A stretch of DNA of 38,227 bases, taken from positions 1 through 38,227 of the forward strand of contig CAYWOA010000002.1 in the NCBI GenBank assembly GCA_964459795.1, written 5' to 3'. Of this stretch, positions 27,071 through 35,700 are shown piece by piece. The stretch is from an uncultured Candidatus Saccharibacteria bacterium (GTDB lineage Bacteria > Patescibacteriota > Saccharimonadia > Saccharimonadales > UBA4665). The notes under the pieces were generated by a model. The model did not search any database and was not told the origin of the DNA. It was given only the letters and a program-made list of their open reading frames with translations. A program made the translations under genes and the position numbers. The first letter of the stretch is position 1. Every line of letters begins with the position of its first letter.

Positions 27071-28063
27071 ATGCGCATACGGGGGAACACAAGACTCTTT
27101 AGCCTGCTTGCCACGATATTGCTCGTCCTGGTAGTATGTGGCGCCAAGGTTCTGGCGGAAGATTATAATGTCAACGCTGTCGTGCCGTACCCGACGCCGA
27201 CCCAGGCGGCCACGGTCGATTCATTTGCGAACGGCGCGGTGGTTCATGATGCTCAACAGACGGTGAGTGGCACCTGTCAGGTTACAAGTCCGTCCAATGT
27301 TGTGTCGGTCTGGCGAGATAGTCAGCTGCTCGGTTCGGCGGCATGCTTAAGTGGTTCGTACTCTCTTAGTGTTGTGTTGCAGCTTGGGCAGAACAATCTA
27401 GTCGTGCGAACGGCAAACCTCAATGGCATATACGGACCAGATAGCGCACTGGCTATCATTTCATTTGAACGTCCTGTTACCGCAGAACCGCTTCCAACAG
27501 GAGTCAATCAGCCTACAACGACTATCCAACAGACAGGCGCTATCAATCAGGGTGGTCTGGCGAACCTCCAGATTACGACACAGACTCCATTCAGCGTGTT
27601 GTCTCCCGATAGTAGCCAAATAAGTATCCAGGTGGTGGTAGCTGGTGGGCAACATCCATATGTGTTGCAGCTGAACTGGGGCGATGGTAGTGTCGAATCA
27701 CGTACGATTGACCGACCTGGGGCATACGAATTCACTCACAATTACCGTGCGCAGCGGAGTTACACTGTCCGTGTCCAGGCACGCGATGTACTTGGGTCTT
27801 TTAGCGAGTACACGTACGCGGTTGTATCGAATAAAAGGGTTGCAGTACCGACCCAAAAATCTACCACCAAAGCAGGTACGGCAAGTGGCCACCGCGTCTC
27901 AACGCGGTGGTATATCTGGCTGCTAATTAGCTTCCTTGCATTGTTCCTGTTAACGAGCTACTGGCTCGGCTGGCAGCGAGCAAAACACCGCTATGAGCAG
28001 CTCACAAAACAAAAGTCTACCAAGCCCGCTGCAAAGCGCAAACAAGGAAAACGAAAGTCATGA
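27071..28063 (+). CDS. secreted Ig-like/PKD-domain protein with a C-terminal TM anchor and Lys/Arg tail
   Basis: Start at Met 27071 gives signal peptide MRIRGNTRLFSLLATILLVLVVCGAKVLA. PKD-like motif LNWGDGSVESRTIDRPGAYEFTHNYRAQRSYTVRVQARD. TM helix followed by QRAKHRYEQLTKQKSTKPAAKRKQGKRKS. Confidence 0.6.
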   Translation: MRIRGNTRLFSLLATILLVLVVCGAKVLAEDYNVNAVVPYPTPTQAATVDSFANGAVVHDAQQTVSGTCQVTSPSNVVSVWRDSQLLGSAACLSGSYSLSVVLQLGQNNLVVRTANLNGIYGPDSALAIISFERPVTAEPLPTGVNQPTTTIQQTGAINQGGLANLQITTQTPFSVLSPDSSQISIQVVVAGGQHPYVLQLNWGDGSVESRTIDRPGAYEFTHNYRAQRSYTVRVQARDVLGSFSEYTYAVVSNKRVAVPTQKSTTKAGTASGHRVSTRWYIWLLISFLALFLLTSYWLGWQRAKHRYEQLTKQKSTKPAAKRKQGKRKS

Positions 28064-28626
28064 AAAGACGCTGGATCATGGCCGTTCTGGCTGTCGTGCT
28101 ACTAGGCAGCGGATTCTGGGTGTACCGATGGTGGTATGGCCCGGCCGAGAGCGTGGAAGTGAGCTCGGCAGCGCAGACACAGACTGGCGTGCTTGGCAGT
28201 GAGAGTAAACTTCTGCCGTGGCAAACAGCATACTTTACCACACGTTACCCTGAGGATCTTCGCATTATCACCACAAACGAGGTTGTACACGGAATTACTG
28301 CCGGGCAGTATCTCCTTGGCTCGGTTTCACTCAAGCAAACCGATCAACTGGCGGTTACTGTTGGTAAACTCGGCACCATGACGCTCACAGAGCTGCCGGC
28401 AATTAAACTACGCAATCTTCAAGCAGCCACGTACCAGTCGGCGACTCGCACGTTCGTACCCGACGGCGCCGTGGTGTTTCGTAAGCTCGCCGGTGGCTAT
28501 GAAACTTCGGTGTTCTGGCAGAATGATGGGCAATATGCCGCGGTCGTCGTGAGCGGCTTATCAACGCGGCAGGCGGAGCTGGAGCAGCAGCTGGAAGCGG
28601 TTGTGTCCAGCTGGCAGTGGCGCTAG
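28060..28626 (+). CDS. N-terminally anchored hypothetical protein
   Basis: 188 aa. ATGA overlap with the upstream gene. Anchor MKRRWIMAVLAVVLLGSGFWVY. No family recognised. Confidence 0.5.
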   Translation: MKRRWIMAVLAVVLLGSGFWVYRWWYGPAESVEVSSAAQTQTGVLGSESKLLPWQTAYFTTRYPEDLRIITTNEVVHGITAGQYLLGSVSLKQTDQLAVTVGKLGTMTLTELPAIKLRNLQAATYQSATRTFVPDGAVVFRKLAGGYETSVFWQNDGQYAAVVVSGLSTRQAELEQQLEAVVSSWQWR

Positions 28627-28674
28627 CGCTTCCGTTCGCTCAGCGATGTCCGATGCGCTATACTGGGAGCTATT

Positions 28675-33516: not shown

Positions 33517-33529
33517 GATACACGTCACT

Positions 33530-35197
33530 ATGACAGAGACACGTGTAAAACGGATCTTCTTAGCGGCATTGCTCGCCATAGTCGGCTTTGTCGCCTTTTT
33601 TGCTGTGCCCGTTCATACTGATGCCGCTATCAATTCGCAGATTAACTTCCAAGGTAAACTCACTAATCCTGACGGTACCAATGTCACTGACGGCACCTAT
33701 TCGATCGTTTTCAGTATCTACACTGTCAGCACCGGTGGTACGGCCGTATGGACTGAGACCCAGTCTTCAGTCGCGGTGAGTGATGGCATATTCCAGGTAT
33801 CGCTCGGCAGCGTCGCAAGCTTACCGGGGAGCGTTGATTTTAACACCAGCTCAATCTACCTTGGTGTCAAAGTTGGCTCGGATGCTGAGATGACGCCGCG
33901 CATCCAATTCACTGCTACCCCATATGCCTTTAACGCCGATGAGATAGATGGCCTGGATTCTGCTAATATCGTTCAGCTTGCTCAAGGTGTGCAAGCTGAT
34001 AGTTCGACCACCAATGCCTCACTGGCTATCAATAAGACAGGCACTACGGCCGCCATTGCCACCTTCCAGCGTGGTGGTACCACCGTTTTTAACGTGAAGA
34101 ATGATGGTTCTATCCTGGCTCAGAACCAAGCCGATTCGACAACGGCGTTTGTCGTCCAGGCTGCCGGCTCCGGTCCGGTCCAGCTAACCGTCGACACTGC
34201 TAACGACAAGGTTATTATCGGTTCTGCTACCACTGATACTAATCAAGTACTGCTCCAGCCAGACTCCTTTAGTACCTTTGCCGACACCGCTAGCTGTAGT
34301 ACAACAAACAACCAAGGCGCAATGTACTACAATACCGCTACCGGCACGATGCGTGGCTGTATCAATGGCAGCTGGGAGGACTTGCTGTCTACTGGCGGGC
34401 TTGGCTTGATGGCATTTGGCGTTATACCGGATTCTGCAAACGCTACGAGTCCCGGTGAACTCGCCGGTATTACGCAGGCAAATAGTCCCTGCAAAGTCTA
34501 CTGGTCAGCAGCGCAGCAAGTCACCGTCGCACCATGCTACGCCTATTCGGGCGGTCGCAAGGTTACCGTCCCGCTGACTACCTTGTCTACAACAGGAATT
34601 ACTGCTAGTCGTTATACAAACATCTGCCTAAATAGTAGCGGAACGCCTGTTATCATGGACACGACCGGTACCGCTACCGATGCTGCGAGCGTCAAACCGG
34701 CATGGAGCGTCAACAACCCACTGCTCTGCCTGGCTACGCTCCAGATAAGTACTACGGCCGGCAATATTACTAATGGTAAAATTTACGACGTACGCACATT
34801 CACGACGACCGACAAGACCTTTGCTACGAGCAATACTGCGCTGGGACTCGGTTTTGCCGTCATCCAATCGACTGCAAATCTTGTGACGACTACGACCACA
34901 GCTGCAACGGCCAACATCCGTGGCGTCGTCGTCGCCTACAGCGGTGCTACCAGCACGACGACGGCGAATGTCATCATCGCCACAAACGGACCGCAGTGGG
35001 TCAAGGCTACGGGCACTTCAACTGTCGCCCAGTGGGTGCAAACTTCCGGAACCGCCGGTTATACTCAAACGACGGGCACCGCTTTCACCACGACCTTTGC
35101 CAACCTTGGTGTTGCTACCCGCACAATCGATACTACCTGTACGTCAAATGCAACCTGCCAGTATTCGCAGTTCCTAAATCCGCTTACACTGCGCTAA
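33530..35197 (+). CDS. secreted Thr/Ala/Gly-rich fibre-like protein
   Basis: 555 aa from Met 33530. Signal/anchor RIFLAALLAIVGFVAFFAVPVHTDA, then INFQGKLTNPDGTNVTDGTYSIVFSIYTVSTGGTAVWTETQSSVAVSDGIFQVSLG, a motif I recognise from many uncharacterised bacterial surface or tail-fibre-like proteins. The rest is T/A/S/G-rich. Confidence 0.55.
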   Translation: MTETRVKRIFLAALLAIVGFVAFFAVPVHTDAAINSQINFQGKLTNPDGTNVTDGTYSIVFSIYTVSTGGTAVWTETQSSVAVSDGIFQVSLGSVASLPGSVDFNTSSIYLGVKVGSDAEMTPRIQFTATPYAFNADEIDGLDSANIVQLAQGVQADSSTTNASLAINKTGTTAAIATFQRGGTTVFNVKNDGSILAQNQADSTTAFVVQAAGSGPVQLTVDTANDKVIIGSATTDTNQVLLQPDSFSTFADTASCSTTNNQGAMYYNTATGTMRGCINGSWEDLLSTGGLGLMAFGVIPDSANATSPGELAGITQANSPCKVYWSAAQQVTVAPCYAYSGGRKVTVPLTTLSTTGITASRYTNICLNSSGTPVIMDTTGTATDAASVKPAWSVNNPLLCLATLQISTTAGNITNGKIYDVRTFTTTDKTFATSNTALGLGFAVIQSTANLVTTTTTAATANIRGVVVAYSGATSTTTANVIIATNGPQWVKATGTSTVAQWVQTSGTAGYTQTTGTAFTTTFANLGVATRTIDTTCTSNATCQYSQFLNPLTLR

Positions 35198-35700
35198 TGT
35201 CACGTACTGCTCGTTTGCTCGTCGCTACGGGAGCCATTTTACTCATCTGTGTGGGTTCTGCTACGGCTTGGGTAATGACGCATCGGGAGGCACCTCTTCT
35301 GCCGCCTAGAATTACCGAGCAGGCCTCGTTCGTTATGTACGTACCAGGTTCTGATTGGCAGACGGATGCTGAAGAAGCAACCATCAGGAATGGTGTCTTA
35401 ACTCTCCATGCTTCTCGGGGCAACGACAGCCTCATCATCACCCAACAGGCAATCCCGGAGGTGTTCGATGATGTCCCTCAGTATTACCCACAGCTCATCA
35501 GCCGCCTGAACAAATATGCCAGTTTTGGTACGGTAAACGGTACGGTGTATCTTACTAAACCTAAAGAGTTGAATGGTCAGCAGCAGGCCGTACTTAGTAA
35601 TAATGGGACACTCCTTTTCGCTCACCCGAGTCATAACCTTGATAGTGATAGTTGGCGGCGTTTCTTCAATAGCCTGATCATAGTCAAGCCGACAGATTAA
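35197..35700 (+). CDS. N-terminally anchored hypothetical protein, last gene of the surface module
   Basis: TAATG stop/start overlap with the upstream gene. MSRTARLLVATGAILLICVGSATAWV anchor. 167 aa. The track ORF start at 34996 is an out-of-frame overlap artefact. Confidence 0.5.
   Translation: MSRTARLLVATGAILLICVGSATAWVMTHREAPLLPPRITEQASFVMYVPGSDWQTDAEEATIRNGVLTLHASRGNDSLIITQQAIPEVFDDVPQYYPQLISRLNKYASFGTVNGTVYLTKPKELNGQQQAVLSNNGTLLFAHPSHNLDSDSWRRFFNSLIIVKPTD

Follow-up and report, generated by a model that had tools for sequence, protein, structure and literature searches.

An eight-gene surface module of an uncultured Saccharibacterium is probably a divergent Pam-type pilus operon

The 38,227-nucleotide contig CAYWOA010000002.1 of an uncultured Candidatus Saccharibacteria bacterium (assembly GCA_964459795.1; this whole stretch is called the window hereafter) carries, between positions 27,071 and 35,700, a module of eight co-directional genes, named O1 to O8 in their order along the forward strand. 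This module is probably a Pam-type pilus operon, which would provide its Saccharibacterium with a surface filament built without usher, sortase or ATPase. The identification draws on what was observed of its gene structure, paralogy and conserved synteny, of the homology of O1 to the protein PamR, and of the fold modelled for O5. Filament systems of this kind were already described in 2026 and are encoded in NCBIfam, and the module is a further, divergent member of them. The eight genes form a real, conserved and biologically meaningful operon, lying far beyond chance because the closed Saccharibacteria genome CP064993.1 repeats all eight in order and because the synteny of the core genes recurs in about 50 of 80 loci. 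Little is known of how the ultrasmall epibionts of the candidate phyla radiation (CPR) locate their hosts and stay attached to them, and a filament operon free of usher and sortase is a direct candidate for this task.

The prototype of the system comes from the Saccharimonadia parasite Ca. Mycosynbacter amalyticus, where electron cryo-microscopy of the filament identified the pilins PamA and PamB, which polymerise by giving a linker strand to the neighbouring subunit (bioRxiv 10.64898/2026.03.03.709456). According to the same work, the pam operon also encodes a minor pilin, PamE, a single-domain tip protein, PamT, and two FimC/PapD-like chaperones, PamC and PamD, which possess a C-terminal transmembrane (TM) helix unlike their Gram-negative counterparts. 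It further encodes PamR, in which a pair of FnIII domains is preceded by an additional strand at the N-terminus and followed by a TM helix at the C-terminus, and for which a role in pilus termination and tethering is proposed. Neither an usher nor any other trans-envelope machine belongs to the system, which is reported from Saccharimonadia and Microgenomatia and whose conserved neighbourhoods include a tail-fibre-like protein (bioRxiv 10.64898/2026.03.03.709456). In passing, an apparent inconsistency is seen in this source: its Supplementary Table 1 labels QHN42421.1 (119 kDa, adjoining pilM) as pamC, whereas its text puts PamC (WP_260763277.1) beside PamB; QHN43268.1 (36.5 kDa, hypothetical) fits PamC better.

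The gene structure was already outlined in a first-pass annotation made from the sequence alone, and all eight open reading frames (ORFs) that it listed are present on the forward strand (Table 1). The three coupled junctions that it described could be read directly: the start of O2 overlaps the stop of O1 in an ATGA (GTCATGAAA at 28060), O5 and O6 share an 8-nt overlap (ATGAGTAG at 32055-32062), and O8 is translationally coupled to O7 through a TAATG (CTAATGTC at 35195-35199). The N-terminal signal or anchor that it assigned to every product was found as a clear hydrophobic segment in the sequences of O1, O2, O4, O6, O7 and O8, as a short signal-like stretch in O3 (MHKLWGALLPVFLFAAAP), and as a helix at residues 4-23 in the AlphaFold2 (AF2) model of O5. 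Besides, O1, O5 and O6 each end with a C-terminal TM segment followed by a basic tail. In a Pfam scan, none of the eight proteins gave a match above threshold. In line with the same annotation, no match to the sortase, usher or N_methyl families was obtained among them in Pfam and NCBIfam, and none of them has a C-terminal LPXTG-like motif. Promoter and terminator scans of the region remained at background level and were not used.

The link by sequence between the module and the Pam system is carried by O1, which matches the NCBIfam model NF058578 CPR_pilus_PamR ('pilus system RbmA-like protein PamR') with an E-value of 5.6e-34 and a score of 117 bits, in an alignment covering positions 40-292 of the 297 in the model. 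The same model is matched by four O1-type proteins of related loci, the best of them with an E-value of 1.8e-53, and by ten of the many PamR-like proteins that an exhaustive search with the O1 family profile yielded from the representative library (105-151 bits). The predicted layout of O1 comprises a signal peptide, a mature N-terminal strand, two immunoglobulin (Ig)/PKD-like domains, a C-terminal TM helix at about residues 276-301 and a basic tail. Across the O1 family, the mature N-terminus Y-N-V-N-A-V-V-P-Y-P is nearly invariant and the cysteine pair C69/C92 is invariant. O1 homologues lie upstream of O3 in 18 Saccharibacteria loci, and M. amalyticus is absent among 57 O1 relatives retrieved by a word-based search. 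As judged from its sequence, O1 is a PamR homologue with a matching predicted architecture. The module can no longer be taken for one without a known counterpart, since O1 is a full-length homologue of PamR and the operon has the Pam architecture.

The second line of evidence concerns O5 and O6, whose homology takes in the two beta domains as well as the TM helix (BLASTP E-value 2e-8; family profiles 2.2e-31). The AF2 model of O5, built from 39 homologues, reaches a predicted local distance difference test score (pLDDT) of 89.6 and a predicted template modelling score (pTM) of 0.75, and it displays two beta-sandwich domains (residues 41-168 and 177-309) followed by a C-terminal membrane helix (312-351). 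When this model was compared with the PDB by Foldseek, the matches, with overall E-values of 6e-9 to 5e-6 and alignments of about 270-290 columns, included the chaperones of chaperone-usher systems CsuC (5d6h), YadV (5ghu), CfaA (4y2o/4ncd), FimC (1kiu/1qun), PapD (1qpp), DraB and CupB2. Near the top stood the Enterococcus faecium WxLIP, both in its WxL-bound form (9i25_C, E-value 7.4e-9) and as 9i1y, within a range of 7e-9 to 4e-8. CEP192 SPD-2 and ciliary central-apparatus chains, which we take to be PapD-like/ASH-type domains, were matched as well. On the basis of this fold and of these matches, O5, and by homology O6, therefore has the architecture described for PamC and PamD. The two proteins are, as far as the model goes, PapD/FimC-like chaperone candidates with a C-terminal TM helix, their chaperone likeness being one of fold, with no Pfam sequence match to PapD_N or PapD_C for O5. 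The TM segment of O6 (residues 274-296) precedes an unusually long tail of about 170 amino acids (aa) with a high content of Lys, Ser, Thr and Pro (residues ~297-465; 32940-33452), which is lineage-specific because most O6 homologues are only 303-390 aa long. More than 673 homologues of O5 were found, all annotated as hypothetical and all from Saccharibacteria or unclassified metagenomes.

The putative clients of these chaperones are O3 and O4, the other of the two paralogue pairs that the first-pass annotation had recognised and that BLASTP and profile comparisons now support. The last ~165 residues are common to both proteins (BLASTP 41% identity, E-value 1e-11; family profiles 1.2e-22), and Thr, Ala, Ser and Gly together make up 51% of O3 and 58% of O4. 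In the AF2 model of O3 (pLDDT 80), residues 1-71 fall below 50 and are disordered in the monomer. They are followed by an FnIII-like domain at about 75-182, a linker strand at 188-194 and the C-terminal beta domain held in common with O4; Foldseek returned FnIII matches only, which concern the FnIII-like part of the model. The N-terminal region of O3 is conserved and includes the motif S-T-N-Y three times as well as a V-N-A-N-V-P segment, and O3-family N-termini from four related loci (L020, L049, L036 and L074) match the PamT model NF058579 with E-values of 2.4e-9 to 8.9e-5. Like O5, O3 has numerous homologues (more than 758), all of them annotated as hypothetical and originating from Saccharibacteria or unclassified metagenomes. 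O4 is made up of a signal peptide, a beta-rich N-terminal domain with a conserved Cys pair, a linker strand and the C-terminal beta domain, the last two being homologous to O3. Its per-position conservation, computed over 74 homologues, highlights the linker, with the highly conserved consensus D-Q-I-V-V-T-A-[ST]-V-P-x-T-F-S-F-A-L, and the C-terminal end, with a conserved D-Y-x-D-T-x-T-V-V-x-x-G-x-F. In both the O3 and O4 families, conservation is among the strongest in the linker and in the C-terminal strand, the pattern also reported for the Pam pilins (bioRxiv 10.64898/2026.03.03.709456). Searches of PDB sequences with O3, O4, O7 and the O3 and O5 family profiles gave nothing relevant.

A short motif, V-x-A-x-V-P, connects the putative subunits with the PamR homologue. 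It occurs at residues 34-39 of O1 (27170-27187), at residues 71-76 of O3 (28885-28902) and in the linker of the O4 family, where the window O4 reads V-T-A-S-V-A-P (residues 176-182; 30360-30380). The motif thus sits at the start of mature O1, in the segment before the FnIII-like domain of O3 and in the inter-domain linker of O4. We infer that these segments are candidate donor strands, O1 possibly acting as the capping donor. Together with the conserved linker, the shared motif gives indirect support to a filament formed by donor-strand exchange.

The remaining genes encode a fibre candidate and two small anchored proteins. O7 begins with a signal or anchor and a conserved domain of about 150 aa, whereas its C-terminal part is variable. 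In most of 30 loci, conservation is confined to the first ~140-155 aa, and the homologues range from 445 to 2141 aa in length. Residues 30-97 match the NCBIfam model Bdello_MAT_N (NF053851) with an E-value of 1.3e-6 and 28 bits against a cut-off of 60. Homologues of O8 were found in L077 and L082 only, the same two loci in which the C-terminal part of O7, too, is matched by the O7 homologue (O7-O8 homologues at L077:15583-18807 and L082:12754-14987). This co-variation makes O8 a likely cognate partner of the O7 C-terminal module, and the pattern resembles that of a fibre with its cognate assembly or partner protein. O2, whose hydrophobic segment spans residues 4-24, has homologues in 25 loci as detected by BLASTP on called ORFs, which precede O3 in some loci and separate O6 from O7 in others, and it gave no match in Pfam, NCBIfam or PHROG. 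The possibility that O2-type proteins represent PamT was rejected, as they do not match the PamT model.

To survey the distribution of the module, the O3 profile was run against a single genome of each GTDB species, which yielded 156 loci, the best 80 of which were kept. O4 adjoins O3 in 76 of these 80 loci, and O6 follows O5 in 50. The order and strand of the core O3-O4-O5-O6-O7 are maintained in about 50 of them, most of the others being cut by contig ends. The usual arrangements, nearly always on one strand, are O3-O4-O5(x1-2)-O6-(O2)-O7 and O4-O5-O6-O3-O7. In CP064993.1, all eight genes are found in identical order directly after rny, with gene calls of 326, 186, 347, 353, 359, 422, 562 and 180 aa that mirror the ORFs of the window. 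A check for conserved co-occurrence, proposed along with the first-pass annotation, has consequently come out in favour of the module. M. amalyticus (CP045921) is not among the best 80 of the 156 loci. Taken together, these data suggest a core formed by the pair of subunits, the pair of anchored chaperones and the fibre, and variable parts, namely the PamR-like tether and O2, which are detected only in Saccharibacteria-type loci or shift within the operon, and O8, which accompanies only the C-terminal type of the window O7.

In terms of taxonomy, the loci bear the labels Saccharibacteria, Moraniibacteriota, WWE3, Andersenbacteria and Paceibacteria. All close homologues come from Saccharibacteria/CPR, in agreement with the small-genome epibiont lineage that had been considered at first reading. 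Loci L022-L078 include many contigs from metagenome-assembled genomes labelled Bdellovibrionales, Pseudomonadales, Burkholderiaceae, Gammaproteobacteria and Fimivivens. Labels of the Bdellovibrionales/Pseudomonadales type look wrong because O3 is there 53-99% identical to that of CPR-labelled loci. With the non-CPR labels judged unreliable, the Pam-type module is restricted, among these homologues and loci, to CPR genomes.

Assuming a Pam-type pilus, the eight products could work together in the following way. All of them would be exported or inserted through the Sec pathway, O4 (probably the major one) and O3 being secreted subunits whose C-terminal beta domain lies behind a conserved linker strand. 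O5 and O6 would retain subunits that have just been exported on the outer side of the cytoplasmic membrane, a chaperone strand completing the C-terminal domain of the subunit. The linker strand of the next subunit would then displace this chaperone strand by donor-strand exchange, and the fibre would thereby grow from its base. O1 would plug the last subunit through its V-x-A-x-V-P N-terminus and tether the fibre to the membrane through its C-terminal TM helix. Finally, O7, with its exchangeable C-terminal part, and the co-varying O8 would be the likely host-recognition element, either on the pilus or separately anchored.

The comparison with the Pam system itself supports this assignment on many points. 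Both belong to the CPR lineage and both carry Sec signals on all parts. They have in common a PamR protein (here the homologue O1), a pair of PapD-like chaperones (here the candidates O5 and O6) that end in a TM helix and a fibre-like neighbour (O7), and they lack usher, sortase and ATPase. The succession of N-domain, linker strand and C-domain predicted for O3 and O4 is consistent with that reported for PamA, PamB and PamE, and some relatives of O3, though not the window O3, partly match the PamT model at their N-termini. The sizes agree as well, since 330 aa for O1, 360 aa for O5 and 341-347 aa for O3/O4 fit PamR (32.8 kDa), PamD (37.4 kDa) and PamB/PamE (~38.6 kDa), respectively (bioRxiv 10.64898/2026.03.03.709456). 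By contrast, O2 and O8 correspond to no named Pam protein, an FnIII-like domain forms part of O3 while PamT is reported to consist of one domain, and O3 contains no cysteine and O4 one pair whereas two to three pairs are reported for PamA/PamB. Sequence similarity to the prototype was detected only for PamR (sub-threshold) and for the PamT N-terminus in relatives.

Several observations weigh against the assignment to the Pam system. With its 117 bits, O1 fails the equivalog cut-off of NF058578, which is set at 300 bits, and ten O1-profile matches in the representative library likewise score 105-151 bits, all far under 300; O1 is therefore a divergent homologue and does not qualify as an equivalog of PamR from M. 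amalyticus. The PamT matches of O3 relatives span only model positions 18-84 of 241, and the window O3 itself did not match NF058579 in NCBIfam at E<=1. PamR and PamT are the only Pam-named NCBIfam models matched, none having been matched by O4, O5, O6 and about 100 relatives. In the same line, the PamA/PamB entries 25PZ and 25QA were unmatched in PDB sequence searches and by Foldseek, and the proposed homology of O3-O6 to the prototype rests on architecture. The gene order of M. amalyticus is PamC-B-R-D-E-A-T (by accession order), whereas here the PamR-like gene comes first, followed by O2, the subunits, the chaperones and the fibre, and the ATP synthase/CorB/MFS neighbourhood of M. amalyticus is absent around the module. 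Besides, strand complementation, polymerisation, the order of assembly and a role in host attachment are attributed to the module by analogy. In the light of the sub-equivalog PamR, the other gene order and the other neighbourhood, the module is therefore a divergent member of the Pam kind and not an orthologous copy.

Other explanations were considered for the same set of genes. O5 and O6 could each hold O3 or O4 by strand insertion, without polymerisation, to give a static surface complex comparable to that of the WxL/Csc systems. Strand-inserting surface display is indeed the model proposed for WxLIP-WxL in Firmicutes, and in an AlphaFold2 prediction the WxL sandwich receives its completing strand from WxLIP. 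The matches of O5 to WxLIP structures, including the WxL-bound 9i25_C, the weak WxLIP_PGBD matches that recur in O5/O6 relatives, and the presence of two subunits with two anchored partners, which resembles the usual cluster of one WxLIP plus two WxL proteins, would all fit such a complex. On the other hand, no WxL domain was detected in O3, O4 and 134 relatives and no LPXTG protein is present, O1 ties the module to the Pam system, whose filaments are experimentally resolved, and the conserved linker strand and the O1 motif are expected for polymerisation and capping, not for one-to-one display. A static complex is thus unlikely, while keeping the first place among the alternatives.

That the genes encode independent, co-transcribed adhesins or envelope proteins (for example a glycan binder of the FnIII type, proteins with Ig domains and a trimeric fibre) without a joint structure is still less probable. 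Most domain matches are admittedly generic (FnIII, PKD, fn3_5), and O7 may act alone, as Bdellovibrio MAT fibres can do. However, order and strand are tightly kept across distant CPR lineages, together with translational coupling, the paralogue pairs are retained together, and a TM-anchored PapD-like chaperone fold is difficult to account for unless it serves a client subunit. That the genes are a tail-fibre module of a prophage or of phage origin is, finally, very improbable: the mosaic O7 and the small co-varying gene downstream of it do recall a tail fibre with its assembly protein, and an IS200-like transposase gene lies 8 kb upstream, but this origin was rejected because PHROGs matched none of O7, O8, O2 and O4. 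Moreover, the module is a chromosomal operon conserved in many genomes, flanked by rny, an aldose epimerase gene and ymdB and not by phage genes.

Beyond the assignment as a Pam-type pilus operon, three linked readings are put forward as a tentative proposal, which we regard as possible and on balance doubtful. O5/O6 and the Firmicute WxLIP would be true homologues derived from one ancient monoderm strand-completing machinery; O3-O4-O5-O6-O7 would be the widespread form of the system, reaching lineages labelled Moranbacteria, Paceibacteria, WWE3 and Andersenbacteria; and O7 with O8 would constitute a host-specificity module. What the present analysis adds to the description of Pam pili is the WxLIP link, an apparently wider CPR distribution and the mosaic O7/O8 module. 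A structural link between the chaperones and WxLIP could join two separate fields and help to explain how WxL clusters work, and in the mosaic O7/O8 pair it offers a candidate host-range determinant that lends itself to testing.

Table 1. Genes of the module and other features of the window, with the number of loci holding a homologue among the best 80 of 156 (the counts of O1 and O2 were obtained by tblastn)
Feature	Coordinates	Strand	Length	Description	Loci with homologue
O1	27071-28063	+	330 aa	PamR-like base/anchor protein	18
O2	28060-28626	+	188 aa	small N-terminally membrane-anchored accessory protein	18
O3	28675-29718	+	347 aa	secreted subunit	80
O4	29835-30860	+	341 aa	candidate major pilin	76
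O5	30980-32062	+	360 aa	candidate membrane-anchored PapD-like/WxLIP-like two-domain chaperone (PamC/PamD-type)	57
O6	32055-33452	+	465 aa	O5 paralogue; second candidate anchored chaperone	50
O7	33530-35197	+	555 aa	candidate mosaic fibre/adhesin	49
O8	35197-35700	+	167 aa	small N-terminally anchored protein	1
ComEC fragment	22-1134
YebC	1959-2681
RuvB	6293-7327
Type IV pilus cluster	8404-18451
PilM	9581-10660	-		type IV pilus cluster
N_methyl pilin-like gene	10772-12328	+		type IV pilus cluster
N_methyl pilin-like gene	14779-15258	-		type IV pilus cluster
PilC/T2SSF	15391-16644	-		type IV pilus cluster
PilB/T2SSE	16622-18451	-		type IV pilus cluster
IS200-like Y1 transposase gene	18560-19171			Pfam Y1_Tnp, E-value 7e-12
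RecA and RecX	19326-21006
Lamin Tail Domain protein	21789-23156		455 aa	LTD, E-value 2e-15
rny	24621-26135
Aldose 1-epimerase gene	26148-26975
ymdB	35746-36546
tRNA-Pro (TGG)	37507-37583

As to the chromosomal setting, the module sits, together with an aldose 1-epimerase gene, between rny and ymdB (Table 1). In locus L005, rny and ymdB are adjacent (6341-8673), and in CP064993.1 the module comes after rny with no ymdB behind it; close relatives therefore differ in where the operon is placed. The type IV pilus genes are separate from the module, as the first-pass annotation had noted; they form a cluster at 8.4-18.5 kb with PilM, PilC, PilB and N_methyl pilins, whose 518-aa pilin-like protein also contains a CarboxypepD_reg domain. 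The IS200-like transposase gene stands between this cluster and recA, and the gene of the Lamin Tail Domain protein between recX and rny. The other features of the window are housekeeping genes and a tRNA gene.

Among the known systems, the WxL/Csc loci (PMC10599100; PDB 9i1y, 9i25) had been invoked from the start as a distant analogue, and this comparison remains apt for one of its two sides. Both are found in a monoderm setting, both cluster two secreted beta-rich partner proteins with an anchored protein of two Ig domains that has a signal peptide and a C-terminal TM helix, and in both the anchored protein is predicted to supply a strand that completes its partner. The recourse to DUF916/DUF3324 proteins was justified insofar as the O5 model is structurally similar to WxLIP, and the WxLIP likeness of O5/O6 does have substance at the level of the modelled fold. 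At the sequence level, O5 and O6 of the window remain below significance for Pfam DUF916 (PF06030) and DUF3324. Weak matches to WxLIP_PGBD (PF06030) were obtained at E<=1e-3 for 6 of 134 relatives (best 2.7e-5) and, at E<=0.05, for 9 of 51 relatives of the O5 type, DUF3324 appears in no match list, and WxLIP was not found by profile searches against PDB sequences. The Pam study contains no mention of WxL (bioRxiv 10.64898/2026.03.03.709456). The differences are that W-x-L motifs and a CscD-type LPXTG-anchored protein are missing among the eight proteins, that no WxL domain was detected in O3 and O4 by Pfam or in the 134 relatives at E<=1e-3, and that WxL systems are not known to make filaments, whereas a PamR-like tether and a mosaic fibre are encoded here. 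Membership in the WxL/Csc loci was consequently rejected, given the lack of a WxL domain, of an LPXTG protein and of significant DUF916/DUF3324 matches in O5/O6. The other initial suggestion, that of a new fibre assembly system or attachment organelle, was the better of the two, except that the system has since been described as the Pam pilus.

The chaperone-usher pili (Pap, Fim, Csu, CFA/I) resemble the module by the PapD-like two-domain fold modelled for O5 and by subunits that presumably depend on a donated strand for completion. They differ from it in that the module has neither usher nor outer membrane, that its chaperones are membrane-anchored and not soluble, and that its subunits are two-domain proteins whose candidate donor is the inter-domain linker and not an N-terminal extension. 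Sortase-dependent pili of Gram-positive bacteria are distinguished by their LPXTG motif and sortase, neither being matched among the eight proteins, and type IV pili by the N_methyl (class III) leader, for which the eight proteins gave no match. Finally, the Bdellovibrio MAT fibres (NF053851) differ in that the O7 match is below the cut-off and that O7 is embedded in a pilus operon; they are akin to O7 through the weak match of its N-terminal domain, through a conserved N-terminus with swapped C-terminal modules, and through belonging to an organism that attaches to other bacteria.

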